Source: Callorhinchus milii (lineage: Eukaryota). From it: 64,000 bases of DNA. Shown one piece after another: positions 573-63,320 of the stretch; positions within the stretch are counted from its first letter, which is position 1; each line of letters opens with the position of its first letter. The notes beneath the pieces are model-generated. The model had not been told where the DNA came from. It saw only the letters and a list, made by a program, of their open reading frames with translations, and searched no databases. The stretch spans positions 113,586,001-113,650,000 of the forward strand of contig NW_024704742.1 in the NCBI RefSeq assembly GCF_018977255.1, written 5' to 3'. The position numbers were made by a program, and so were the translations under genes.

Positions 573-893
573 ATAATAATAATAATAATAATCTTTGCAT
601 TTGATATAGCGCTTTTCACGTCAGGAGGACGTCCCAAAGCGCTTCACAGAACACACTGTAAAGTGAATTGACTGTACATTTGTGGGCGAACGCGGCAGCC
701 ATTTGCGCACAGCAATGTCCCACAAACAGTCGTAGATTGAAAATGACCAATTTATTATTGTTTTTGGTTTTGGAGGGATTATTATTAGGTGTGTGGAGTA
801 AGGAAACTTGCCCAAGGTTTTGCCCTGCCTGGAATTTAACTCAGGTCTCTCACTTGCAAAGCGAGTGCTCTAACCACTGAGCTACAGGACTCC
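573..893 (-). mobile_element. tRNA-headed Deu-domain SINE, short subfamily (A), full length
   Basis: Minus strand reads GGAGTCCTGTAGCTCAGTGGTTAGAGCACTCGCTTTGCAAG (A box, anticodon arm, B box), then the Deu-like core GGGACATTGCTGTGCGCAAATGGCTGCCGCGTT, an L2-type tail and (ATT)n. Colinear with 55938-56255. Confidence 0.9.
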
Positions 894-5574: not shown

Positions 5575-5700
5575 TTGTTTGGATCTGGGTGTCTGACACA
5601 TGTGGAAACCCATCACCATGCTTAAGAGTATCCAAACCAAGAGTTCCACGCATCCCATCCACACATTGAAATTGCTATATATTGGAATGTTTCAAATGCA
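5575..5700 (+). repeat. Unnamed interspersed repeat family X, copy 1
   Basis: GGGTGTCTGACACATGTGGAAACCCATCACCATGCTTAAG is shared with 6147, 12612, 22490 (rc) and 48195. Confidence 0.75.
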
Positions 5701-6146: not shown

Positions 6147-6403
6147 GTCTACACAAGCAGAAACCCATCATTATGCTTAAGAGGTTCCGAACCAAACTGA
6201 GAATTCCATACATCGACCTAAACATGGAAATTCCAGTGATGTTTATTGGAATGCAATGTGCACTTTCTCCCTGGAGGGATGTATTTTGCTTACCCAATTC
6301 TGGAGAGTATTCGATTCAGGTTGGCAAGAGACAAGGCTTGGGTACCCAAGTGTGCGTTATGGGACTGCTGGAGTAGTACCAGCTAAAACCGCATAGCTTG
6401 CCA
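6147..6403 (+). repeat. Unnamed interspersed repeat family X, copy 2
   Basis: GAAACCCATCATTATGCTTAAG..GGATGTATTTTGCTTACCCAATTCTGGA..ACTGCTGGAGTAGTACCAGCTAAAACC aligns with 48195-48430 and 22490-22742 (rc). Confidence 0.75.
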
Positions 6404-8204
6404 GTTAAAGCTCTGTTTGGAAAGCTTTCCTGCTGCTTGCCAGCTCAGACCACCTAACTATTAGGATTTTGACTTGCAGGGTTAATGGGAGCTCAGTGTG
6501 ACCGGTCTGCCCTTCCAAGTCCTGCCAATGAGCCAGGCTGGCTGTGCCGTCATCAGCAGTGCCCTGGAATACTATGGTCTCCCCTGGTTCAGGAGCCGGA
6601 TTACCAAGACCGGCACCGAGCGTTGACTCGATTCTGACATTCTGTTGACAAGCGTGGCACCTTGGAGTCAGTTGAGCACTTGGAACCATTGTGCAACTGG
6701 GCAGTATATTGAAAGAAAGTTGTTGAGGAACAATCACCAGCAATAGTGAAGCAGCTTCCCTTCGAGCTGGGAGATCGGAAAAGATAAAATGGTCACAAAT
6801 CCCAGCAGGTAGGAATACAGTATATCTGATTTTTAGTTCAATGAAATGCACTGAAGGGAGGGGGTACATTTATCTTAAAAACATCTTTATGGATTGATAA
6901 TCCCATTTAAATATACAATTTCAATATACAATGTCAGACATTTCACATGCTTTTATTTCATGAGAATAGGAAGGAGGAAATGCTGGCATATTTTGAATAT
7001 AGCATTCGTGTTACAATATCAAATTATTGCTATGTATAGTGTCAGTGAGTTAAGGAATCCAAACCACTGGTAGAAGTAAGGTAACATTTGGTAATTTAAC
7101 TCCTATAATTTTATACGCTATTAACAGCAGCAGAAAGAATATAGAATTCTGAATATATACCTGTAGAAATGACAACTGAGGAATATAAATTTCCAAGAAA
7201 TTAATGCAAAATAATGCAGTGTTATTCACACCTTTGATCAGAAAAGCAGTGTAAATGAGACATGCTTTACAGAGAGAACATCCGTTTCAGATCTAATTCC
7301 CCACACTTCTAATGAATTCATATCAGCAATCACTTCAGCACAGCTGAATTGGTTGTTAAATTAATTGAAGTTTGCAACTGATCAAGTCCATCAAATTCTT
7401 TGAGAAGCTTGTTTCCAGTGTTGCCAATGGAGAATTGTTTTTTTATATACTGGCAGGAAGAGCAGTTGCAACCCAATTTGCTGCAGATGCAACCCAGAAT
7501 AATGTTAACCCCCACACTAGTGCACAAGGGTGGAGAACATAAAGAGTATTCGATCATACACACAGCTTAAATTTAAGAATTGATTTGTGCCATTTCACGT
7601 TGTGCACTGGGATCATTGTTTCTCTTTCTATTATTCTTTAATTGCAGATAAAACTTTCAGAAAAATCTTGCAGTAAAATCTCGTTCACAAAATACAGTCA
7701 CACCACTTTACAGTATACTTTGTGAAGCGCTTTGAGATATCTCGACTAAGGGATAAGGCACTATATCAAATGCAAGGATTATTGTTAAGCTTCTACTGTG
7801 GATATTCTGCAGAAAGTGGCCCAGAACCAGACAGGAGTTGTTTTCATTCTGGATTTATACTAGCATTATTAAATGCTAAGGATTTACTCTGGAGCCCTGA
7901 CTAAGTATACTGGGTTTATACGAATGGTTTATTATGTCACATCAGCAGTTTAACTTAAAGGTCTGCATGAAGAACATAGAATACATGGAAGATTAGAAGC
8001 CACAGCAGCTTTTGAGCCATTGTTTCCAAAATACAAGGTACAATTTACATTGCCTGAAGGATATGCTCATGATCAATTCTATATATAAGCTTTTCAATTC
8101 CTTACCCTTTCCTTAACCAGACAGTGATCCATTTCCTTTTTGGTAGTTAACTAACATTCTTTATTAATTTTATTTACTATTGTGCAGGACATCAACAAGA
8201 GTGC

Positions 8205-12611: not shown

Positions 12612-12690
12612 TGGTCAACGGATGTCTGAGACATGCGAAAACCCATCATCCTGCTTCAGAGTATCCAAACTATATGTACAGAGTTTCTGT
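12612..12690 (+). repeat. Unnamed interspersed repeat family X, copy 3 (short)
   Basis: GGATGTCTGAGACATGCGAAAACCCATCATCCTGCTTCAGAGTATCCAAAC. Confidence 0.65.
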
Positions 12691-21725: not shown

Positions 21726-22142
21726 CAAATTCAGAGAACATCTGACAATTACCGAAGCCAGGGAATGAAGTTACACCATGGGTACTGTTAGAAACATAAA
21801 TGTAATCAAAAGGCAAAATATTGCAGATGCTGGAATTCTGAAATAAATGTGGATCAGTCCGGCTCAGTCGGTAGTACTCACCTCTGAGTTGGCGAGTCAT
21901 TAAGGAGTTAAGCAGGGCTTTCTTGGACCTGAACTGGCTCCAAGGTTATATGCTTAGTAATGGGATGTCAGAATCAAGCCAATCCTATGTGGTCTCTGTA
22001 GTTCGATTTCTGAGCGAAGCAGGTACGCTGGACACTGCTCATGACAGACCATCCAGTCTGACTCAGCATCAGGATTTAGAGGGCAAGGATTCTTTAAACT
22101 CATCTCCTGTTAACCTTGCAAGCCAAAGCCCTAACAGGTAGT

Positions 22143-22435
22143 CTATTCCCCTGTTTTGATGCAATCCCCCCCTTTGTTTTGCCTCATTAACACTTCTTTA
22201 ACCCATCATTCCCTGTCCTCTATCCCATTTTCTCCTTTGTCTTCCTTGCCCTGCCTCCCCCCTCTCTGTTAGCCCATAAAAGCCTCTCCCTCCCAACATG
22301 TTCCAGTTCTGATGAAGGGTCATTGACCCGAAACGTTGACTCACTTTCTTTTCTCCATAGATGCTGCCTGACCTGCTGAGTGTTCCCAGCGACTTCTGTT
22401 TTTGTTTCAGATTTCCAGCATCTGCAGTATTTTCT
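22143..22435 (+). mobile_element. Penelope-like element terminal module with 13-bp TSD
   Basis: CTGATGAAGGGTCATTGACCCGAAACGTT..CTCCATAGATGCTGCCTGACCTGCTGAG..TTTCAGATTTCCAGCATCTGCAGTATTTT, flanked by CCTAACAGGTAGT at 22130-22142 and 22436-22448. Confidence 0.8.
22305..22341 (+). ncRNA. Minimal type I hammerhead ribozyme motif
   Basis: AGUU-CUGAUGA-A-GGGUC(AUU)GACCC-GAAAC-GUU-GACU: core boxes, 5-bp stem II, 4-bp stem I and palindromic AACGUU in place of stem III. Confidence 0.7.
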
Positions 22436-22489
22436 CCTAACAGGTAGTTGGACTAACAGTAGTTAGAAGTTTGCCAGACAGTCATTTCA

Positions 22490-22742
22490 ATGTCAAGCTA
22501 CTGGGTTTTAGCCAAATCAGAGCAGGAGTACCCTAACCACACTCTAGGATCCTGAATCCTATGCTCTTGCCAACCTGCGCCTAACACTGTTCACAATACT
22601 CTCTCCGGGGAGAGAGTGCACATTCCAGTCTAGATATGGATATTTCTATGTGTAGATGGGATGCATGGAACTCTGTCTGATTTGGCTACCGTTAAGCATG
22701 GTGATGGGTTTCCATGTGTATCAGACACCCGAGTGACCGATA
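22490..22742 (-). repeat. Unnamed interspersed repeat family X, copy 4
   Basis: TTAAGCATGGTGATGGGTTTCCATGTGTATCAGACACCC is the reverse complement of the 5588-5625 motif, and the similarity extends through CTCTTGCCAACCTG and GGTTTTAGC. Confidence 0.8.
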
Positions 22743-23559
22743 ACAAAATCAACAAGTCTTATTGGAAAGTGTCAGAGAATCACTTGCAGGATTGCTCATG
22801 TTGTGAGTACTACATCTGAAGTTATCAAAATCCTTCCCATCTCTAACCACAAGATGTTGACTTGGACATCACCCTATTCTTCACAAAGTGGTTTTAAGCA
22901 GGAATCTTTATTGTACTGTTGGTGAAATGGGTTTAAATCCCTCAATGCTAAAAGATAATCACAGATTGGGCCAAAACAGAATTTAATACTGGAAGCTCCA
23001 CAGACCGTTAAATCATTCCAGCCGAATTCTCAGCACTTGGAAATGGTTCTCTTGGGGAGATTGATGATGTCAATCTGAAACCCATCTGAAATGGAGCGAT
23101 ACTTTCAGAGAAATACAGTCTTTATCAGAAAAACATCAACCTTAGGCCCATTTCTTTTCACAGAATTAGTAAATCATTGAAAGGTAAAGCCTAAACAATC
23201 TATTCAAAGATTAAGGGCCAATATTGGAATATCCTACAAAGTATGATCATGTATTAATAATAATTAATATAAAACGATTGGATTGTTAAATGGTTGGATA
23301 TAGTTGTTATGAAGTTTCCAGTGGGAAAATTCTGAAATTGTAACTTTTCAATTTATTTATATATTCCATATTTATTTACATATTCTGTTGGACTTCAGAC
23401 TGATGTTTCTGTCAATACAGAAAATTAGGTTCTGGATTTTCTCAACAGAACAATTTTTCGTCCATCTGCTGTGTGCAACACAAAGAGATGCCACTATTTT
23501 ATTTAGATGCAATTTAAAAATCCATTGATTGTACTAAAAAAATGATATAAAAAATGTTC

Positions 23560-35996: not shown

Positions 35997-38637
35997 CATA
36001 AGACCATAAAACCATAAGATGTAGGAGCAGGAGTAGGCCATTCGGCCCCTCGAGCTTGCCCCACCATTTAATAAGATCATGGCTGATCTTCTAACCTAAT
36101 TCCATTTACCTGCCCTATCCCCATATCCCTTAATCCCTCTATCTTTTAGAAGTCTATTAACCTCCTTCTTGAATATGTTCAAGGACTGAGCATCCACAGC
36201 CTTCTGGGATAGAGAATTCCACAAATTCATTACTCTGAGTGAAGAAATGTTTCCTCAACTCAGTTCGAAAAGGTTGACCCTTAATCTTGAGACTATGACC
36301 CCAAGTTTTAGATTCTCCAACCAGGGGAAACAGTCTCACGGCATCTACCCTGTCAAGACCCTTAAGAATCTTATAGGTTTCTATAAAATCACCTTCTAAT
36401 TCTTCTATATTCTAGAGAATATAGGCTTAGTTTACTCAACCTATCCTCATAGGTTAACCCCCTCATCCCAGGAACCAACCGAGTGAATCTACGCTGCACT
36501 CCCTCTAAGGAGGACACACAAAGGAGACCAAAACTGCACACAATATACTAGGTGCGGTCTCACCAAGGCCTTATACAACAGCAAGAAGACTTCCCTACCC
36601 TCTTGTATTCTAATCCTTTTGCAACGAACGCCAACATGGCATTAGCCTTCCTAGTTGCTTGCTGTACCTGCATACTAACTTTTTGTGACTGGTGTACAAG
36701 GGAACCCAAATCCCTCTGAACACTAACACTACCTAGTCTCTCCCTCTCGAGAAAATAATCTGCTTTTCTATTATTACTACCTCGGTGAATAACTTCACAC
36801 TTCCCCACTTTATACTACATCTGCCACCTTCTTGCCCAGTCACCTAGCCTGTCTATTCCCCTTTGAATTCTTCATGTGTCATCCTCACAGCTTATTCTCC
36901 CACCTATTTTTGTATCGTCCGCGAATTTAGATATATTAAGTTCTATTTCCTCATCTAAATCATTGATATAGACTGTAAATAATTGAGGCCCAAGCACTGA
37001 TCCTTGTGGCACTTCACTATCACATCCTGCCAATCTGAGAAGGACCCGTTTATCCCTGCTCTCTGTTTTCTTCCTGTTAGCCACTCTCCAATCCATGCAA
37101 ATATATTGCCTTTAATTCCATGGGCTCTAATCTTATGCAACAGCCTTTTATGTGGCACTTTGTCGAGTGCCTTCTGGAAATCCAAATACACCACATCTAC
37201 TGGTTCCTCCCTATCTAACCTGCTAGTTACATCCTCAAAAATCTCTATAAGATTTGTTAAACACGATTTCCCTTTCGTAAAGCCATGTTGCCTCTGCCTA
37301 ATCATGTTATCAGCGCCTTGGGATGTCCTCCCGACGTGAAAGTCATTCTATAAATGTAATTTTGTTTTTGTTATGATTTTCTAAGTACCCCACAATGACG
37401 TCCCTAATTAAGGACTCTAGAATTTTCCCTACCACCGATGTCAGACTAACTGGTCTATAGTTCCCCATTTTTTGTCTCCCACCCTTCTTAAATATTGGCA
37501 TTACGTTTGTGACCTTCCAATCAGTGGAACCATTCCAGAATCCAGAGAATTTTGGAAGATCAAAAATAAAGCATCCACTATCTTTGCAGTCACCTCTTTT
37601 AGAACCCTAGGATGCAGGCCATCAGGTCCAGGGGAATTATCAGGTTTTAATCCTATCAATTTCTCTAGTACTATTGCTTTACTAATGTTCATTTCTCTTA
37701 AGTTCCTCACTACCATTAGCTTCCAGGTTCCCCTCTATTTTCGATAAGTTTTCAGTGTCCTCTAACGTGAAGACAGAAGCAAAATAATTGTTTAATGACT
37801 CTGCCATTTCTTTATTCCCCATTATAATTTCTCCAGTCTCTGCCTGCAATGGACCCACATTCACTTTTAATAGTCTCTTCCTAAAAACTCTTACAATCTG
37901 TCTTTATGTTCCATTTTCTCCCTCTTAATCAGTTTCTTGGTTTTCCTTTGCTGATCTCTAAAGCCCTCCCAATCCTCAGGTTTACTGCTCTTTTTGGCAG
38001 TATTATAGGCCTCTTCTTTTAATTTTATACTTTCTCTAGTTAGCCAAGGTTGAACCACTTTTCCCGTGATATTTTTAGTTTTCAAGGGAATATGTGATCG
38101 CTGGGAATTATGTATTATATCTTTAAATGTTTACCATTGCTGGTCAAATTTTTTAAATCTAATTTCCCAGTCTATTCTAGCTAAATCTTCTCTCATACCT
38201 GCAAAGTTGGCTTTATTTAGATTTAAGACCCTTGCTTCGGATTCAACTATATCACTCTTTAACTTAATGTTAATTTCCATCATGTTATGGTCACTCTGCC
38301 CTAGAGGAGTCTTAACTTCCAGATTGCTGATTAGCCCTATTTCATTACACAAAACAAGATCTAGGATTGCCTGTTCCCTGGTTGGTTCCTCAGCAAACTG
38401 ATCTAGAAAACTATCTCTAATGCATTCTATGAACTCATCCTCTAATTTACCTTTGCCAATTTGGTTTTCCCAGGCTATATGAAGATTGAAATCACCCACT
38501 ATTAGTGTATTACCCTTGCTACATGCTCCTCTAATTTCCTGATACTGTACTCTAATACCCTACCCAATACTGTAATTGCTGTTTGGGGGTCTATAAACTA
38601 CTACCACTCGTGTTTTCTGCCCCTTGTTGTTTCATCT
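35997..38637 (-). mobile_element. CR1 LINE, ~2.6 kb, 5'-truncated, frameshifted ORF2 (APE endonuclease + RT)
   Basis: MGDFN..EEPTREQAILDLV..SDH (endonuclease), SPGPDGLHPRVLKE, QHGFTKGKSCLTNL, VYLDFQKA.DKVPH, VPQGSVLGP, KFADDTK. (CTTATGGT)-type tail at ~36000. Confidence 0.97.
37311..37368 (+). mobile_element. 58-bp L2 tail inserted into the CR1, TSD TGTTAT
   Basis: CAGCGCCTTGGGATGTCCTCCCGACGTGAAAG..TATAAATGTAATTTTG lies between TGTTAT at 37305-37310 and 37369-37374. Confidence 0.85.
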
Positions 38638-42217: not shown

Positions 42218-44115
42218 TACAGCTGTGTAAACTTAAGGTAAATAAATCTCAGGGACCGGATAAATTGCATCCAAGGATCCTTATGGAACTAAGCTGGCAC
42301 AACTCTTTCAAAAATCACTGAATACTGGAGAGGTGTCGGGGGACTGGAGAAAGGCAGATGTTACTCCTATTTTTAAGAAAGGTAACAAAAGTGACCCAGG
42401 AAACTACACACCAGTAAGTTTGATGTCCATTGTGGATAAAATTATGGAGACTCTTACTAAGGATAAAGTCATGGAGCATCTGGACAGAAATAAAATCATA
42501 AATAATAGCCAATATGGGTTCATGAAGGGAAGGTCTTGCCAATCTAATTTACTGGTTTTCTTTGACGGTGTGACAAGGGAGCTTGATAAGGGTAAGACTG
42601 TGGATGTTGTATATCTGGATTTCAGTAATGCCTTTGATACACTTCCTCTGAAGAGGTTGGTACTGAAAGTAAAGAAAGCGGGAATCAGTGGAGGTATATT
42701 ACAATGGATACGCAACTGGTTGACCGGAAGAACCCAGAGGATGGTGGTACAGGGAATGTCATCAGACTGGGAAACTGTTACCAGTGGAATTCCACAAAGG
42801 GTCTGTTTTGAGACCTCTTTTGTTTAATATTTTTATGAATGATCTGGAACTAGGAGTCACAAGCACAGTGACTAAGTTTGCAGATGACACCAAGCTAATG
42901 AAGATGGTAGATTGTGAAGCTGAACAAGATAGGTTAAAGGAAGATTTCAATATACTTGGGAATTGGGCAGATCAGTGGCAGATGAAATTCAATGTGGAGA
43001 AATGTAAAGTACTTCACATGAGTACAACATATCCTGGAAAGGATTATAATTTGAGCGGAAGGAAAATAATATGTATGGAAAATGAAAAGGACCTGGGGAC
43101 CTGATTGACAATAAATTGAAACTCTCCCAAGAATGCTCTGTGGAGGTGAATAAAACAAACCAGATGTTGGAATGTTATCAAAATAATAATAAATATAATA
43201 ATCCCTGAATTTGACATAGTGTTTTTCACGTCTTCCAGAGATCTCAAAGTGTTTCACAGAATATACTGTAAAGTAAATTAACTGTATATTTTGTGGGTGA
43301 AACGCGGCAGCCAATTGTGCACAGCAGCGTCCCGCAAACAGTCATGGATTGAAGTGACCAATTTATTATTGTTTTATTTCTTGAGGGATTATTATCAGGC
43401 GTGTGGAGTAAGGAAACTTGCCCAAGATTTCACCCTGCCGGGAATTGAACCAGGTCTCTCGCTTGTGAGGCGAGTGCTCTAACCACTGAGCTGCAGGACT
43501 CCAAAAGATCAATAGCAAGCCAAAATAGTTCGTTAATCCTGTCACTGTATAAATTATTGGTGAGACCATATTTAGAGTACTGTGTACAGTTCTGGTTGCT
43601 GCAATACAAAAGGGATATTGGAGAAATCGAGAAGATACTGAGGAGGGCAACCAAAATGACTGAGAGAATGAAAGATCTGGACTATGAAGAGTGACTAAGT
43701 AAATTAGGCATGTTCATGCTGGAAAAGAGAAGATTGAGAGGTGATATGATTGCTATCTTTAAGATTCTAAAGGGTCTAGACAATATAGATCATATTAACT
43801 TGTCCAGAGTAGTAAAATCAGAGGACACGGCCTGCGATTGAATGGGGGTAAATTCAGAACGAATCTACACAAACACTATTTCAGTGAGCGAATAGTGAAC
43901 CTATGGAACAGGCTCCCTAGGGAGACGGTTGAAGCAGCAAGTGTTGATTCTTTCAAACACAGATTAGACAGTTTTCTTTTAGGAAATAACATTATGGGAT
44001 ATACTACGTAGGGAGTGTGGGACATATGTACATGCGATCGCTAGGAAGGTGGAAGGCGAACTAGATGGACCTTGGTCTTTTTTTGTCTAGCATTTCTTAT
44101 GTTCTTGTGTTCTTT
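42218..44115 (+). mobile_element. CR1 LINE, 5'-truncated, frameshifted RT, interrupted by a SINE
   Basis: KSQGPDKLHPRIL, DWRKADVTPIFKKG, YLDFSNAFD, KFADDTKL, WQMKFNVEKCK. Resumes after 43502 (RPYLEYCVQFW). Tail GTCTAGCATTTCTTATGTTCTTGTG. Confidence 0.97.
43183..43502 (-). mobile_element. tRNA-headed Deu SINE subfamily A inserted in CR1
   Basis: rc GGAGTCCTGCAGCTCAGTGGTTAGAGCACTCGCCTCACAAGCGAG.. through to the (ATT) tail, with a short AAAA duplication at the junctions. Confidence 0.92.
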
Positions 44116-45109: not shown

Positions 45110-45213
45110 TAAAACAAAAACAGAGATCACTGGGTCACACATCAGGTCAGGTAGCATCTATGGAGAAAGGAAAGTGGGTCAATGTTTCGGGTCCACGGCC
45201 TTTCGTCAGAATC
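45110..45213 (-). mobile_element. Penelope-like terminal module with decayed hammerhead
   Basis: rc TTCTGACGAAAGGCCGTGGACCCGAAACATTGACCCACTTTCCTTTCTCCATAGATGCTACCTGACCTG aligns with 22307-22405. Confidence 0.8.
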
Positions 45214-45324
45214 CATTTGTCAGTATTTTGTGTTTTTTTAGAGCTGAATACTAGCTGTACATTAACGTGATTATTCCAATGTCCTGCTCGCCGGACTCCC
45301 AAGTTCCTCCCTAGACAAGTTGCA

Positions 45325-48194: not shown

Positions 48195-48430
48195 GATCAG
48201 CCGAGTGTCTTAACAAATTTTGATCCCCATGATTAAGCAGTATCAAGCCCAAACTGAGATTACCACCTATATATGGAAATTCTTGGGTTTGGAATAGAAC
48301 GAGGACTCCCTCCAGAAGGATGTATTCTGCTTACCCAATTCTGGACCGTCCCAGGTGGAGGTTGCCAAGAACAAAGGATTGGGTGCCCATAATGTGTGGT
48401 GGGATACTGCTGGAGTTTAGCCAGCTAAGT
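48195..48430 (+). repeat. Unnamed interspersed repeat family X, copy 5
   Basis: GGATGTATTCTGCTTACCCAATTCTGGA..TTGGGTGCCCA..ACTGCTGGAGTTTAGCCAGCTAA closely matches 6277-6388. Confidence 0.8.
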
Positions 48431-52810: not shown

Positions 52811-54085
52811 TTTCTTATAAAGGACACACCTGAAGCATTCCTTCTCTCTTATCTGCTTTATCAGAATCTTCTGTTCTTTATTTCAGATTCCCAGGAATTT
52901 GTTTTTATCCTCACTAATTTAGCACCCACAGTGGCAAGAGCGGGAAATGAACAAAGATGAGGTCACATTTCACGGCAGTGTAAGGGCAGAGACCTCGACA
53001 CTGCTAATAAACTGTGGTCTATATGATGTGGGAGCACTTTCTGCTGATACTTAGTACAGTAAAGAGCCCATTAAATCTCATTCCAAGCAATCTCGCACGC
53101 AAGGGTGCAACTCTGCACATGTAAACTTTTGTGCCACTTTTTTGCAGCTACATTCCCATTTTCACATTGGAGCCTGATGCATGGGTAACTAGCATGTGGA
53201 TAATCCGTGTTCTACTGCACATAAAAATAAAAAAGTTGTCCATTTTAAATTTAGTAGAAATATGTTTATATTGCCTGCACTAATGTCACATAAGAGGAGG
53301 ATGGATGAAATGTCCCATTACTGGGCCTGGTTCTCTCTGTACCTTCATTGAAAACTTTTCAGATATAATATTGAAGCTATTAACTGAACATTCTTGTTCT
53401 TGTACAGATGACATTCACCCTTGACAGAAGGAAGGACTGTTCTGACTAGCTGTTCTTTTGTAGCTTTAAAAACAATGTCAATTTGTTCCATTTGTTTTGG
53501 AAAATAAATATTCTGTGGGTGTTGAAGACTTTAGATACACAATACCTGTCTGGTTCTATATGCAGTTTGTGCCTTGCATAGTAATGCTACATTCTCACTG
53601 AAAGAATTTTGGCTCACTTGCTCTATTCTTCTGCCAATACATAGACCAATTACTTGGCCAATAATTGAACGCCTAAAGCATAGCACTGCATTTGTTTTAT
53701 TAGTATGGCAAAGTCAATTGATATCTGCAGGATCAGATCATGTATAGTAATGTAAAATAGTAGGACTGAGTAAGTCAAAGCCAATCAATCTGATTAGTAT
53801 ATAATCTCCTACAATTTGTAACCAATTATTTTGTGAGGTTCTTTAGAAGACAAAATACGCATGAAATAAACAGCAAATTTGAGTGTTCAGATAAACCAGC
53901 AGATTGCTACAATAATGAGGAAATACCACTGCATTGTATATTATCTCCAGAGTGCTTGTTAATCTTACATAGTTGCAGAATTCACTGTGTTCTGTAGGCT
54001 GTGGGAGGAGGAAAATAGCCTGGCTCAGTTGGTAATATTCTCGCCGCCGATTAAGAAGGTTGTGAATTCAAGCCCCAAATTGAAT

Positions 54086-54312
54086 GGAGTCCTGTAGCTC
54101 AGTGATTAGAGCGCTCGCCTCGCAAGCGAGAGACCTGGGTTTGATTCCTGGCAGGGTGAAATATTCGGCAAGTTTCCTTACTCCACACGCCTCTGTTTAC
54201 CTAGCAGTAAGTAGGAACCCGGTTATTAGTCGATTGACGGATCGCTTTTCCGGGGGTAATAATTCCTTCAAAATAAATAAAAATAATTTATCAATCACTC
54301 AATCCACGGCAG
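54086..54312 (+). mobile_element. tRNA-headed SINE, long subfamily (B), 3'-truncated
   Basis: Same head as subfamily A plus the extra segment CTCTGTTTACCTAGCAGTAAGTAGGAACCCG. It directly follows a SacSINE1-like head (54017-54078). Confidence 0.9.
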
Positions 54313-55822: not shown

Positions 55823-56720
55823 ATCATAGAATCATACAGCACAAAAAGAGGCCATTCGGCCCATCGAGTTTGTGCCGGCTCTTTGAATAGAACAATTAAT
55901 GTCAGTCCCACTCCCCAGCCCTTTCCCCATAACATGTGGAGTCCTGTAGCTCAGTGGTTAGAGCACTCGCTTTGCAAGCGAGAGACCTGAGTTCAATTCC
56001 AGGCAGGGCGAAACCTTGGGCAAGTTTCCTTACTCCACACACCTAATAACAATCCCTCCAAAAAACAAAACAATAATAAATTGGTCATTTTCTATCCATG
56101 ACTGTTGTGGGACACTGCTGTGTGCAATTGGCTGCCGCGTTCGCCCACAAATATACAGTCAATTTACTTTACAGTATATTCTGTGAAGCGCTTTGGGACG
56201 TCTAGAAGACGTGAAAAGCGCTATATCAAATGCAAGGATTATTATTATTATTATTATAACCCTGCAAACCCGTCCTCCTCAAATACCCGTCCACCGCGTT
56301 TTTAAAAGTAGTTATCGAATCGTCCTCGACCACCCTTTCAGGCAATGCGTTCCAGATTCGAACAACTCGCTGCGGGAAAACATTTCTTCTCACCTCCCCT
56401 CTGCTTCTTTTAGAGACTATTTTGAATCTGTGACCTCGAGTCACCGACACACCCACCAGTGGATACAGTTTTTCCCTTTCTAAACAAATCCCCTCATGAT
56501 TTTGAAGACCTCCATTAAGTCTCCTCGTAACCTTCTCTGCTCCAATGAGAATAATCCTAACATCTCCAGCCTTTCCTCATAATCAAGGTCCCTCATTCCT
56601 GGCACCATCCTCGTAAATCTCCTCTGCACTCTTTCCAATGCCTTAACATCCTTCCTAAAATGTGGTGCCCAGAACTGGGCACAGTATTCTAACTGAGGCC
56701 TAACCAGTGTTTTATATAAA
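55823..56720 (-). mobile_element. CR1 3' portion interrupted by a SINE
   Basis: LYKTLVRPQLEYCAQFWAPHFRKDVKALERVQRRFTRM..LGLFSLEQRRLRGDL, TRGHRFK, tail ATCATAGAATCATACAGCAC. Confidence 0.95.
55938..56255 (+). mobile_element. tRNA-headed Deu SINE subfamily A, full length, TSD ATAAC
   Basis: Intact A/B boxes, anticodon arm CTCGC-TTTGCAA-GCGAG, Deu core and (ATT)n tail. ATAAC occurs at 55929-55933 and 56256-56260. Confidence 0.95.
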
Positions 56721-57404
56721 AAAAGAATGTGAAAAAGAAACCCTTCCATTATAAATGGCATGGTTTCTTTTTCAAACTCAAACTATAGCACTGCATTCAT
56801 AAAGAAAATCCTGGATTATTCTTTCATGCAATTTCAATTCAAGAAAATTCACTTGAATGTCGTTTTGTTGCTATTTTGAAGCAAAACTTTAGCATGACAC
56901 ACAACTGTTAAAGTAATGATTCCCTGATCTCTGCAGAAACTGTTTACAGTTGGTAGAAGAATTCAGACTATTAAGTGGAACCTACTCTTAGCACATCTTT
57001 GCCCTTGTCACTAATGTATAGCAATGTAGTCAGATTATATTTGATCAGATCTGGGTAAGGGATATTATCATATGCTTTGACATTGTTTTTAATAATTTTT
57101 CAGTTGCATGGTAATAAATTGTTTATTTTTTAATTCTTGGCAGAATATGTATTTTTTCGCTCTTTTACAAACCCCAATGCAGCAGTTCTATGCAGATCCA
57201 GTAAAAGTTTCTTTGTCTACATCTTGGCCTGTAGTGTCCCAATATTTTTGCTATGGCAACAAATAAACACTTTGCTTAAAGTACATCCTATTAAATCCCA
57301 ACACAAGTTTAACAAAAAATTAGTTTTCATCTGGGATAAGAAGTTTTAAATTAAAGACAGCTCTAAATATAAGACAAAGGTGTTGTGCAAGTGATTTTGA
57401 GCAA

Positions 57405-59030
57405 GGGAGTAACAGCTCCACCTCCTTGCCCCCCCTACTCACAGACATCATAAACCTCTCTCTGTCCACTGGCACCGTTCCCACCCCAAAAACGGCCGTC
57501 ATCACTCCTATCCCTGCTGGACCCATCACTGCTCTCAAATTACCGCCCCATCTCCAACCTCCCTTTCCTTTCCAAAGTCCTGGAACGATTCATTGCCTCC
57601 CAGCTTCGCTCCATCGTCTCCCACCACTCCATTCAGAACCCGTCCAATCGGATTTCTGTGCCACCCACAGCACTGAAACAGCTTTGGTCAAAGTGACAAA
57701 TGAGATTTTGTCCAACTGTGACCAAGGCTGTCTCTGCCTCCTCATCCTCCTTGACCTCTCTGCAGCCTTCAATACCATTAACCACTCTATTCTCCTCCAC
57801 TGTCTCTCCTCTCAACTCAACATTCGTGGTTCTGACTTTGAATGGTTCAGAACCTACCTCTCACACTGTCTCCACTTCATCTCCACAAACGGCTTCTCCT
57901 CTAGCCCCCGCACTGTCTTGGCGGTGTTCCTCAGGGCTCTGTTCCCTCCTCTTCAATATCTATATGCTCCCTTTTGGTGACATCATCCACAGACATGGGG
58001 TCAATTTCCACGTTTATGTGGATGACACCCAACTCTACCTCTCTGCCTCCACCCTTGACTCCAGGATCATTGCTATCCTGTCCTGACAGAATGTCTGTCG
58101 GATATCAGGTCCTGGATGAGAGCCAACTTTCTACAATTGACAAGACCGAGGCCCTCCTGATTGGCTCCCGTCAGCACCTCCTCACCTCAGGCACTGACAG
58201 CATCACCATCCATGGTTGCACACCCCACCTTACTAAGCCAGTCCAGAACCTTGGTATTTTGTTTGACCCTCAACTGTCCTCTCCCACAAAGGTACCTTCC
58301 CCACCTCACCGAGCCACTCTGGAACCTTAGCTTCTTGTTTGACCCTCAACTGTCCTTTCTACCCCACATCTGTGCCATGACCCGCTCTGCCTTCCCCACC
58401 TCAGCAACATCGCCCGGCTCCACCACTGTCTCACACCGCAGGCTGCCGAGACTCTCATACATGCATTCATAACTTCCAGGCTCGATTACGCAAATTCCCT
58501 GCTTGCCCACCTCCTCCCTCCATAGCTTGCAGATCATCCAGAACTCTGCAGCCCATGTCTTCTCCGCATCAGGCTCAGTGACCCTATCACCCCCATCCTT
58601 GTCTGACTCCACTGACTTCCCATCACACAGAGGATACAGTTCAAGATCCTGATCCTCACTTTCAAAGCCCTCCATGGCCTTGCTCCCACCTACCTCTGCA
58701 ACCTCCTAACCCCCTGCCAACCTGCCCGCTCCCTCCACTCAGCGGGCTCTGGCCTGCTTCAAGTCCCCATCTCACCCGCCCCACCATTGGCAGAGGGGCC
58801 TTCAGCCACTCTGTCCCTACCCTCTGGAACTTCATCCCACAGACCCATTTGAAGACCCTCGTCTTTGATGGTGTCTTTGGTCACACTCCTGCCCTCCACC
58901 CTCCCAGATCCCGACCCCCAGCTCGGTTCTGAAACACTGACTGTCCAGCGCCTTGGGATGTCCTCCCGAAGTGAAAGGCGCTATACAAATGTAATTTTGG
59001 TATTGTTGTTGTTGTTGTTGTTGATGTTGT
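57405..59030 (+). mobile_element. L2 LINE, ~1.6 kb, RT domain to 3' tail, frameshifted
   Basis: [48 protein letters not shown], stem-loop tail and (TGT)n. Confidence 0.97.
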
Positions 59031-61859: not shown

Positions 61860-63320
61860 AAAATTGCTGTCCCACTAAGGGAGTTGAGCGGAGGAGAGGC
61901 AGTGGAAGAGGATGGCACGATCGACTGGGTCGAACACACTGGAGAGGTCCAGGAGGACAAGGAGGCAGAGGGAGCCCTGGTCACAGAGAAACAAGACAGC
62001 AATTGTGAGTTTGACGAGAGCTGTCTCTATGCTGCAGGCAGGACAGAAACCGGACTGGAGGGGCTCGAGTAGGGAGTGGAAGGAGTGGTCATGGGCTTCA
62101 TATAGGTGATGATGGACATCCAGGCGGTATGATAGCTCCCTGGCATGCCAACCAACTGTTCCAGCACTGACACCTCACCCCATCCCTGGCGTGTGTATAT
62201 GTGTGTGTGTGTGCTTGTGTGCCAACCTTCGCAAAGCACTGTTACTATAGGTAAGTTGATTTTCATATAGGTATATATACATACATATATATTCTGTGTT
62301 TTTCTAATATTTTTGGAGAATAAGAAAATGGGGTTGAGAGGGGGAACGCCATTAAATTTAGCATAGTTCCTGTAGTGTACTGGTTAGAGCACTCGCCTTG
62401 CAAGCGAGAAGACCTAGGTTCGATTCCCGGGCGGGGCCAAACATTAGGCAAGTTTCCTTACTCCACACACACACTCTGTTTACCTAGCAGTAAGTCGGAA
62501 CCCGTTTTTTAGTTGATTGGCGGATCCCTTTCCAGGGGTAATAATCCCTTCATAGAAAATACTAATTTGGTGACTCAATCCACGACAGTTTGGGGACACT
62601 GCTGTGTGCAATTGGCTGCCGTGCTTCACTCACAAAACATATGCTCAATTTACTTTACACTATAATCTGTAAAGAGATTTGAGGTGTCTAGAAGATGTGA
62701 TGAGGCGCTATATCAAATGCAAGGAATATTATAACTATGATTGAGAGGGAGGAAGGAGTGAGTGATGTAGAGGCATGGGGGTTGCTCAGGGACCCGGGGG
62801 AGGAAGAGGAGGCAGCCAGGCTTTTTTCTATCTTTGAGATGAAGAAGGGAAGGATCTCTTCATACTTGGCATTAGATGTGAGGAATGAGGTGTTTGAGAA
62901 GGGGGCACAGAGGAGGTGATGAGTGGTTGAGAACAGCACTTTGGTGTTATTTTTATATAGCATTTCGTCTACAAAGTATACAGTCAATTCACTTTACAGT
63001 ATGTTCTGTGAAGCGCTTTGAAATGTCTGAAAGACATGATAAGTGCTATATCAAATGCAAGGATTATTATTAATATTATTATTATTATTTTTGGCCTCCA
63101 GACTGGCATTGAAATAGAAAACAGTTTTGGCCTGTGAGAGGCAGGGGCGGTAGGTGAAAAGATACTCGAGCCGCGTTTGCCGATGAACCATGAGACGTCT
63201 GGGTTTTAGATTTGAGGAGAAGAGGTGGCTGTTATACCAGGGGGATCAGATGGTTTGGAGACAGTCCTGGATTTCAGGGAGACAAAGAACTGAAAATTGA
63301 GGAGAGGCGCTCGTTGCAGC
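61860..63320 (-). mobile_element. Fragmented L2 ORF2 (pieces ~61860-62150, 62735-62945, 63085-63320)
   Basis: rc gives CAGTCCGGTTTCTGTCCTGCCTGCAGCATAGAGACAGCTCTCGTCAAA (QSGF.P..S.ETALVK) and FFISKIEK. The pieces are in ORF order and separated by SINEs. Confidence 0.7.
62365..62733 (+). mobile_element. tRNA-headed Deu SINE subfamily B, full length
   Basis: GTAGTGTACTGGTTAGAGCACTCGCCTTGCAAGCGAG..GGTTCGATTCCCGG, extra CTCTGTTTACCTAGCAGTAAGT segment, Deu core and tail. Confidence 0.92.

Follow-up and report, generated by a model that had tools for sequence, protein, structure and literature searches.

Cervera and de la Pena (2014, PMC4209133) described the minimal hammerhead ribozymes (min-HHRs) of Penelope-like elements (PLEs) as motifs with no helix III hairpin, for which a second copy is needed and in which the palindromic positions pair between the two motifs. 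In the experiments given there monomers did not cleave, and dimers and trimers showed low cleavage. The motifs were mostly single and dispersed and came from truncated PLEs, with ~4,000 in the coelacanth and ~9,000 in Xenopus. The hammerhead of PAc (Poseidon of Anolis carolinensis) was reported to cut only with the protein of the element (Frangieh et al. 2024, PMC11167929). According to that report insertion in vitro was unaffected in hammerhead mutants, RNA-seq reads had no ends at the site of cleavage, and an optional tail was explained by two start sites of reverse transcription. In rotifer PLEs the pLTR and tail hold the first 12-22 codons (PMC8557442 / PMC3846280). Of the Xenopus dimer elements in the preprint of Li et al. 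(2026, 10.64898/2026.07.22.740005) one in nine was cleaved in vitro.

An intact minimal type I hammerhead with all features of the metazoan PLE type was found at 22305-22341 (+) of the window, the term used here for the whole 64-kb stretch of DNA analysed. It shares with the motifs of Cervera and de la Pena the CUGANGA-H box, a G-C base of helix II, GAAAN-NUH, palindromic 15.2-16.2, the lack of a loop III, a short helix I and a pyrimidine-rich 5' flank (PMC4209133). The >80% consensus of Figure S3 of that paper was matched at every position, and the C-G-U-U ending was counted by eye in 15 of the 56 rows of the figure. The family studied here is absent from those 56 rows, none of which is from a cartilaginous fish. 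It differs from the motifs in that paper in a helix II at the short end (5 bp with a 3-nt loop), in the closing U-G pair of helix I and in the lack of a linked ORF.

The motif is carried by a 293-bp insert. As in PAc, the pLTR contains the hammerhead, two alternative 3' termini, which correspond to the optional tail, follow a short way downstream, and an ORF start (putative in the insert) lies near the hammerhead (PMC11167929). Protein-assisted cleavage of PAc was shown biochemically, and that of 22305-22341 is a prediction from sequence. Heavy 5' truncation, inverted truncated partners, solo pLTRs and an optional tail of 30-40 bp are as described for endonuclease-bearing PLEs (Arkhipova et al. 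2013, PMC3846280; Craig et al. 2021, PMC8557442). Target-site duplications in the window were 8-14 bp compared to 8-10 bp given for rotifer PLEs in the same two papers. The insert also resembles non-LTR retrozymes, which are PLE pLTR-derived, non-coding, carry a type I hammerhead and have a size range that takes in 293 bp (10.64898/2026.07.22.740005). A retrozyme in the sense of that preprint has two or more tandem units, each with a complete hammerhead, while the 293-bp copy is single.

Anatomy and fold of the hammerhead

All parts of the motif are on the + strand. Helix I is made of a 5' arm AGUU (22305-22308), placed by sequence and folding, and a 3' arm GACU (22338-22341), placed by folding. 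It has 4 bp with the closing U-G pair and pair probabilities of 0.56-0.78. The core box C3-U4-G5-A6-N7-G8-A9 reads CUGAUGA (22309-22315) and is followed by an extra A ahead of helix II (22316), both from the sequence and the descriptor given below. Helix II, GGGUC-AUU-GACCC (22317-22329), had pair probabilities of 0.98-1.0, and the descriptor places G10.1-C11.1 at its base (G22317/C22329) and G12, A13, A14 and A15.1 at 22330-22333. By hammerhead numbering C15.2, G16.2, U16.1 and U17 are at 22334, 22335, 22336 and 22337, the last three being the GUU triplet. Every position of the conserved core (C3-A9, G12-A15.1, U16.1 and H17) was matched. The helix III hairpin is absent and palindromic 15.2-16.2 is present, with the self-complementary ACGU at 22333-22336 a candidate intermolecular helix III by the descriptor. 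The cut site is predicted between 22337 and 22338. By the five structural features tested, 22305-22341 is a min-HHR of PLE type as far as its letters tell.

The sequence-only reading of this DNA had named the CUGAUGA box, the extra A, the hairpin, GAAAC, the GUU triplet and the AGUU/GACU flanks, and sequence, folding and descriptor placed all of them where it had put them. The cut after 22337 that it proposed is the same site predicted from hammerhead numbering. It had also described stem III as the palindrome AACGUU. The stem is loopless and palindromic as described, but the helix is the 4-nt ACGU, and the outer A14 and U17 belong to the core. From hammerhead numbering the pairing of A14 with U17 would lie outside the active fold.

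The min-HHR descriptor consisted of the core, helix II of at least 4 bp, palindromic 15.2-16.2 and helix I of at least 3 bp. Its sole match on both strands of the window was 22305-22341, and this was still so when one core mismatch was allowed. The descriptor was matched in one of 1000 dinucleotide shuffles of the window. CUGANGA by itself was not enriched (40 matches in the window vs 39.3 expected). No hammerhead match was found with Rfam 15 in the whole window at the gathering score or in 22200-22460 at E up to 10, which is likely due to the missing helix III hairpin. The catalytic core letters are those of the Rfam 15 hammerhead families.

The folding energy of the 37-mer was unremarkable (z -1.25), with 18 of 200 shuffles as good. 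Mispairing of the core box with the triplet region had a probability of 0.7-0.8 in the monomer, against 0.07 for the open hammerhead-like fold. By nearest-neighbour energies the active double hammerhead was at -14.5 kcal/mol, a pair of folded monomers at -18.0 and a misfolded dimer at -27.7; these values omit tertiary contacts and Mg2+ and are a hint only. As such a hint, the modelled folding agrees with a low intrinsic activity of the motif. PLE hammerhead dimers were reportedly also a subject of Lunse et al. in 2017.

The 293-bp insert and its host repeat

The insert spans 22143-22435 (+) and is a lone end piece of a high-copy repeat family, made up of a pLTR-like part and the greater part of the tail. 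It is bounded by a 13-bp target-site duplication with its left copy at 22130-22142 (+) and its right copy at 22436-22448 (+). This is the longest exact repeat common to both junctions, and the window has just two occurrences of its 12-nt core. Contig 8 of sequencing run X1, one of four runs surveyed, spans the right junction and is identical to the window over 22406-22685. The upstream part of the insert, its first 162 bases (22143-22304, +), is pyrimidine-rich (78% C+T), ends in a YAG at 22304-22306 and was present in family contigs of all four runs. An optional 3' extension, or tail, lies at 22403-22435 (+), with family copies ending at ~22403-22409 or continuing beyond 22433.

The insert interrupts an older host repeat at 21929-22730 (no strand assigned), which has relatives at 6173-6676 and 5587-5690 and is multi-copy in all four runs. 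In the first of these relatives (6173-6676) the sequence matching both flanks is continuous across the site, without the insert, and so represents the empty site. Contigs that continue past 22141 with host-repeat sequence numbered 239 in X1, 97 in X5 and 81 in X8. Further relatives of the host repeat (21929-22142 and 22449-22730) were seen at 12620-12670 and 48249-48428, and its frames had no Pfam match.

An ATG-started, stop-free frame of 28 codons runs from 22361 to 22447 (+), past the last base of the insert and on into the right copy of the duplication. It may hold the first codons of the ORF of the parent PLE, an assignment that is unproven. Three protein searches with this frame gave no homologue; with ~25 informative residues this is a weak negative. 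Matching frames in the two other family fragments of the window, described below, read similarly. Splice-acceptor-like YAG sites after pyrimidine tracts were noted on the sense strand of the insert at 22271-22272, 22305-22306, 22359-22360 and 22409-22410. When 4,011 YAG sites were ranked by their pyrimidine content, three of those in the insert came within the top 2.4%.

Other family fragments and repeats in the window

A second family copy of 128 bp was found at 45112-45239 (-), with 82% identity over 119 nt (E 3e-24) and a 14-bp duplication (45253-45240, 45111-45098). It is made of an inverted tail piece joined to the module from the equivalent of 22307. Its hammerhead is broken by G16.2>A, with loss of the palindrome, and by G10.1>A and a further helix II mismatch. 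The changes in helix II are breaks without compensation. A tail-only fragment of 39 bp was found at 21804-21842 (-), with 91% identity over 33 nt to 22401-22433 and an 8-bp duplication (21796-21803, 21843-21850). It lies 300 bp upstream of the main insert in inverted orientation and appears to be a separate insertion. The duplications of the three fragments are thus 13, 14 and 8 bp. A 27-nt weak match (E 0.019) to the region of the first 3' terminus of the family at 52868-52894 (+) is either a tiny fragment or chance.

No same-strand partner copy for 22305-22341 was found within the 64-kb window. The only other hammerhead-bearing copy in it is the broken one, 23 kb off and on the opposite strand. 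No adjacent copy beside the insert was found in the window, so that the tandem arrangement by which non-LTR retrozymes are defined is absent here.

Outside the family fragments the window is rich in repeats. Pfam analysis of all 266 window ORFs of at least 62 aa (21 + 150 + 95) gave RVT_1, one APE-type endonuclease and one weak C1_4 match. Among these ORFs Pfam recognised no GIY-YIG domain and no host exon. Broken RVT_1 frames, interpreted as LINE remnants, were located at 36875-38559 (-), 42264-43101 (+), 57324-57977 (+) and 61878-62174 (-). One RVT_1 group has the APE-type endonuclease (Exo_endo_phos_2), and no LINE remnant adjoins a hammerhead module. Five tRNA-like heads were predicted, at 820-891 (-), 43430-43500 (-), 54088-54159, 55940-56011 and 62366-62439. 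At least three of them run into a common body of ~325 bp (84-93% identity) and were classed as a tRNA-derived SINE family.

The repeat family across sequencing runs

Contigs of four of 24 listed runs (X1, X5, X8 and X14; X5 may be RNA), from three organisms, were aligned on 21750-22750 at 80% likeness, which gave 20,804, 6,545, 9,535 and 36,590 contigs. Contigs are not equal to copies, some belong to the host repeat, and RNA ends and strand are not readable from them. The repeat family is clearly high-copy in the three organisms. Summed contig depth was highest over 22328-22429.

Position 22313 (N7) is U in the 22305-22341 copy and C in 40-64% of the family depth across the four runs. Two more differences, at 22322 and 22324, lie in loop II, where the family majority has other letters than this copy. 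All three differences inside the 37-mer, among the rows listed (40 of 136), therefore fall in N7 or loop II. Core and stems match the family majority among the same rows, in which minority variants are hidden. A consensus of 29 clipped X8 contigs (agreement 0.43) had A-U rather than G-C at 10.1-11.1, a weak hint of covariation.

Loose contig ends were located at 22403, 22407, 22408 and 22409 and at 22433 in all four runs. Those at 22433 go on with a short common extension and then with AT-rich unrelated DNA. The two clusters mark two alternative 3' termini of the family, separated by ~30-40 nt. Among 24 of 2,779 loose ends listed none was at 22338, and no peak of contig begins or ends was listed, which speaks neither for nor against cleavage. 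Opposite-strand joints within the module made up five of the 15 joints listed, of 527 in all. Family pieces aligned on the insert begin at many different places. Depth rose 6-10-fold from 22294-22327 to 22328-22361. A reading of this rise as copies starting at 22338 was rejected, since contigs clipped in that region read on into the hammerhead of the family (X8 loose end 22345).

No family copies were found in the IMG/VR viral collection. A JGI metagenome match (L001) was dismissed as chance, since it lies within a long coding frame with no hammerhead upstream. Three bacterial GTDB matches (L002-L004) were taken as chance by their record titles only. No paper showing this family was found in a non-exhaustive search of the literature on the lineage; the chondrichthyan family in the 2026 preprint of Li et al. 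may be the same.

The shared 5' boundary of short copies

Many family copies begin at ~22304-22308. In X14 there were 183 contigs of this kind with unrelated flanks, and joints were seen at 22304, 22305, 22306 and 22308. This common boundary is at the foot of helix I and away from the cut site. Between 22307-22312 and the reverse-complemented tail around the first 3' terminus (22406-22410) there are 5-6 letters in common. An inverted tail is joined exactly at the boundary in the 45112-45239 copy and in two joints (21840 to 22308 and 21844 to 22306). Template switching at this microhomology is the preferred explanation and would account for the shared boundary.

A 3' splice site at 22304-22306 is an unproven rival to template switching. 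It has a precedent in D. virilis in the account of PMC4209133, and its pyrimidine content is in the top 2.4% of YAG sites, but it is equalled or surpassed by the sites at 22271 and 22359.

Origin and activity of the motif

The min-HHR at 22305-22341 is very probably a passenger in a dead, 5'-truncated, lone 293-bp PLE end piece that was reverse-transcribed into an older repeat. The sequence-only reading had classed it as a PLE-type minimal hammerhead built for cleavage as a dimer, and both the published consensus match and the insertion architecture support this. Optional tail and inverted partners were seen in the two 3' termini, the opposite-strand joints, the inverted tail of the 45112-45239 copy and the tail-only fragment at 21804-21842. 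No RT plus GIY-YIG ORF was found in the insert or among the 266 window ORFs of at least 62 aa. With no such PLE ORF linked, membership of the PLEs rests on architecture, and as no RT or GIY-YIG sequence was recovered a clade (Neptune or Poseidon) was not named.

From published work, the motif would sit in the pLTR of the parent element. On one tandem transcript two motifs would form a common helix III from their ACGU palindromes and exchange the arms of helix I. Cutting in elements of the parent type would be weak and, as in one tested element, may depend on the protein of the element. The 293-bp copy would have been produced by the RT and GIY-YIG nuclease of the parent, and the ORF and the in-cis partner would have been lost at its insertion. 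It would now be mostly inert, with a cut after 22337 expected only if a partner or a closed helix III were supplied. The motif may have stayed intact through few substitutions falling in it and not through selection.

At 4-9% divergence, an estimate from family contigs, the probability of 31 constrained sites remaining untouched is 0.28-0.05. With neutral survival of 5-28% and a large family, intact copies are expected without selection. The 45112-45239 copy decayed in the palindrome and in helix II, a pattern of decay that ignores structure. A point against the relic is that the three listed substitutions are at tolerated positions (N7 and loop II), as selection would also give. Selection on the 22305-22341 copy was not accepted since two of the differences are CpG-type, the copy was picked as intact and neutral survival is 5-28%.

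An unlikely alternative would make the insert one monomer of a short, non-autonomous element that derives from a PLE and amplified from its own master copy, either a solo non-LTR retrozyme or a SINE-like subfamily, and not a truncated copy of the full PLE. PLE-derived retrozymes with solo monomers have been reported, including in one chondrichthyan genome, in the account of Li et al. (10.64898/2026.07.22.740005). The common 5' boundary seen in the 183 X14 contigs, and in the 45112-45239 copy from 22307, is what such an element would show, but the tail/22307-22312 microhomology is a simpler candidate cause of it. The 293-bp copy is also not in tandem and reaches 164 nt upstream of the boundary, and the varied starting points of family pieces argue against such an element. 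There is very little chance that the motif resembles a hammerhead by accident and belongs to the 3' end of some unrelated repeat, such as a LINE or SINE tail. The Rfam result, the folding z of -1.25 and the absent link to a PLE ORF would fit a look-alike, but a descriptor matched in one of 1000 shuffles would not. The extra nucleotide, G10.1-C11.1, palindromic 15.2-16.2 and the pyrimidine-rich 5' flank moreover recur in PLE min-HHRs, and the tail and inverted junctions are PLE traits that, in the Arkhipova and Craig papers, are unseen in non-LTR insertions.

The relic reading treats the motif as silent at its present site, and the rival to this is a live copy. The sequence-only reading had suggested that a + strand transcript crossing the motif could self-cleave in trans. 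This is possible but weak, as activity in the literature is low and the active dimer is not favoured in folding. For the copy to be live, a host + strand transcript would pair in trans with a family-mate RNA and be cut after 22337 often enough to matter, and in the strong form of the idea it would be an exapted regulator. We regard this as quite improbable. Core, both helices and the palindrome are intact, the listed departures from the family majority are confined to N7 and loop II, and the very abundant family offers many potential partners. In PMC4209133 a low level of cutting was seen in vitro with min-HHR dimers and trimers, and one Xenopus dimer in 10.64898/2026.07.22.740005 cut very well, but the other eight of nine did not cut. 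Also against a live copy are an intermolecular helix III of only 4 bp, the modelled active dimer at -14.5 compared to -18.0 for two monomers and -27.7 kcal/mol for the misfolded dimer, the lack of a same-strand partner and of a Pfam-recognised host exon in the window, and the anole PLE hammerhead, which is protein-dependent and had no RNA-seq read ends in PMC11167929. As a relic of a PLE, the min-HHR at 22305-22341 is probably inert at this locus.

Significance

PLE-type min-HHRs have been known since 2014, with thousands of solo copies per vertebrate genome, and a single locus is of little weight. A wider conjecture, which we hold to be highly unlikely, is that the many intact solo min-HHRs of the family, which have the ACGU seed in common and helix I arms that fit one another, could form double hammerheads in trans across transcripts, or between a host transcript and PLE RNA bound by the PLE protein. 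Host pre-mRNA would then be cut by ribozymes at repeat-guided sites across the genome, with 22305-22341 as one intact node of the network. Trans-cleavage of host RNA by solo copies would matter a good deal, if true. The in vivo role of PLE hammerheads could be studied on a large family of this kind, in which intact copies stand next to naturally broken ones.
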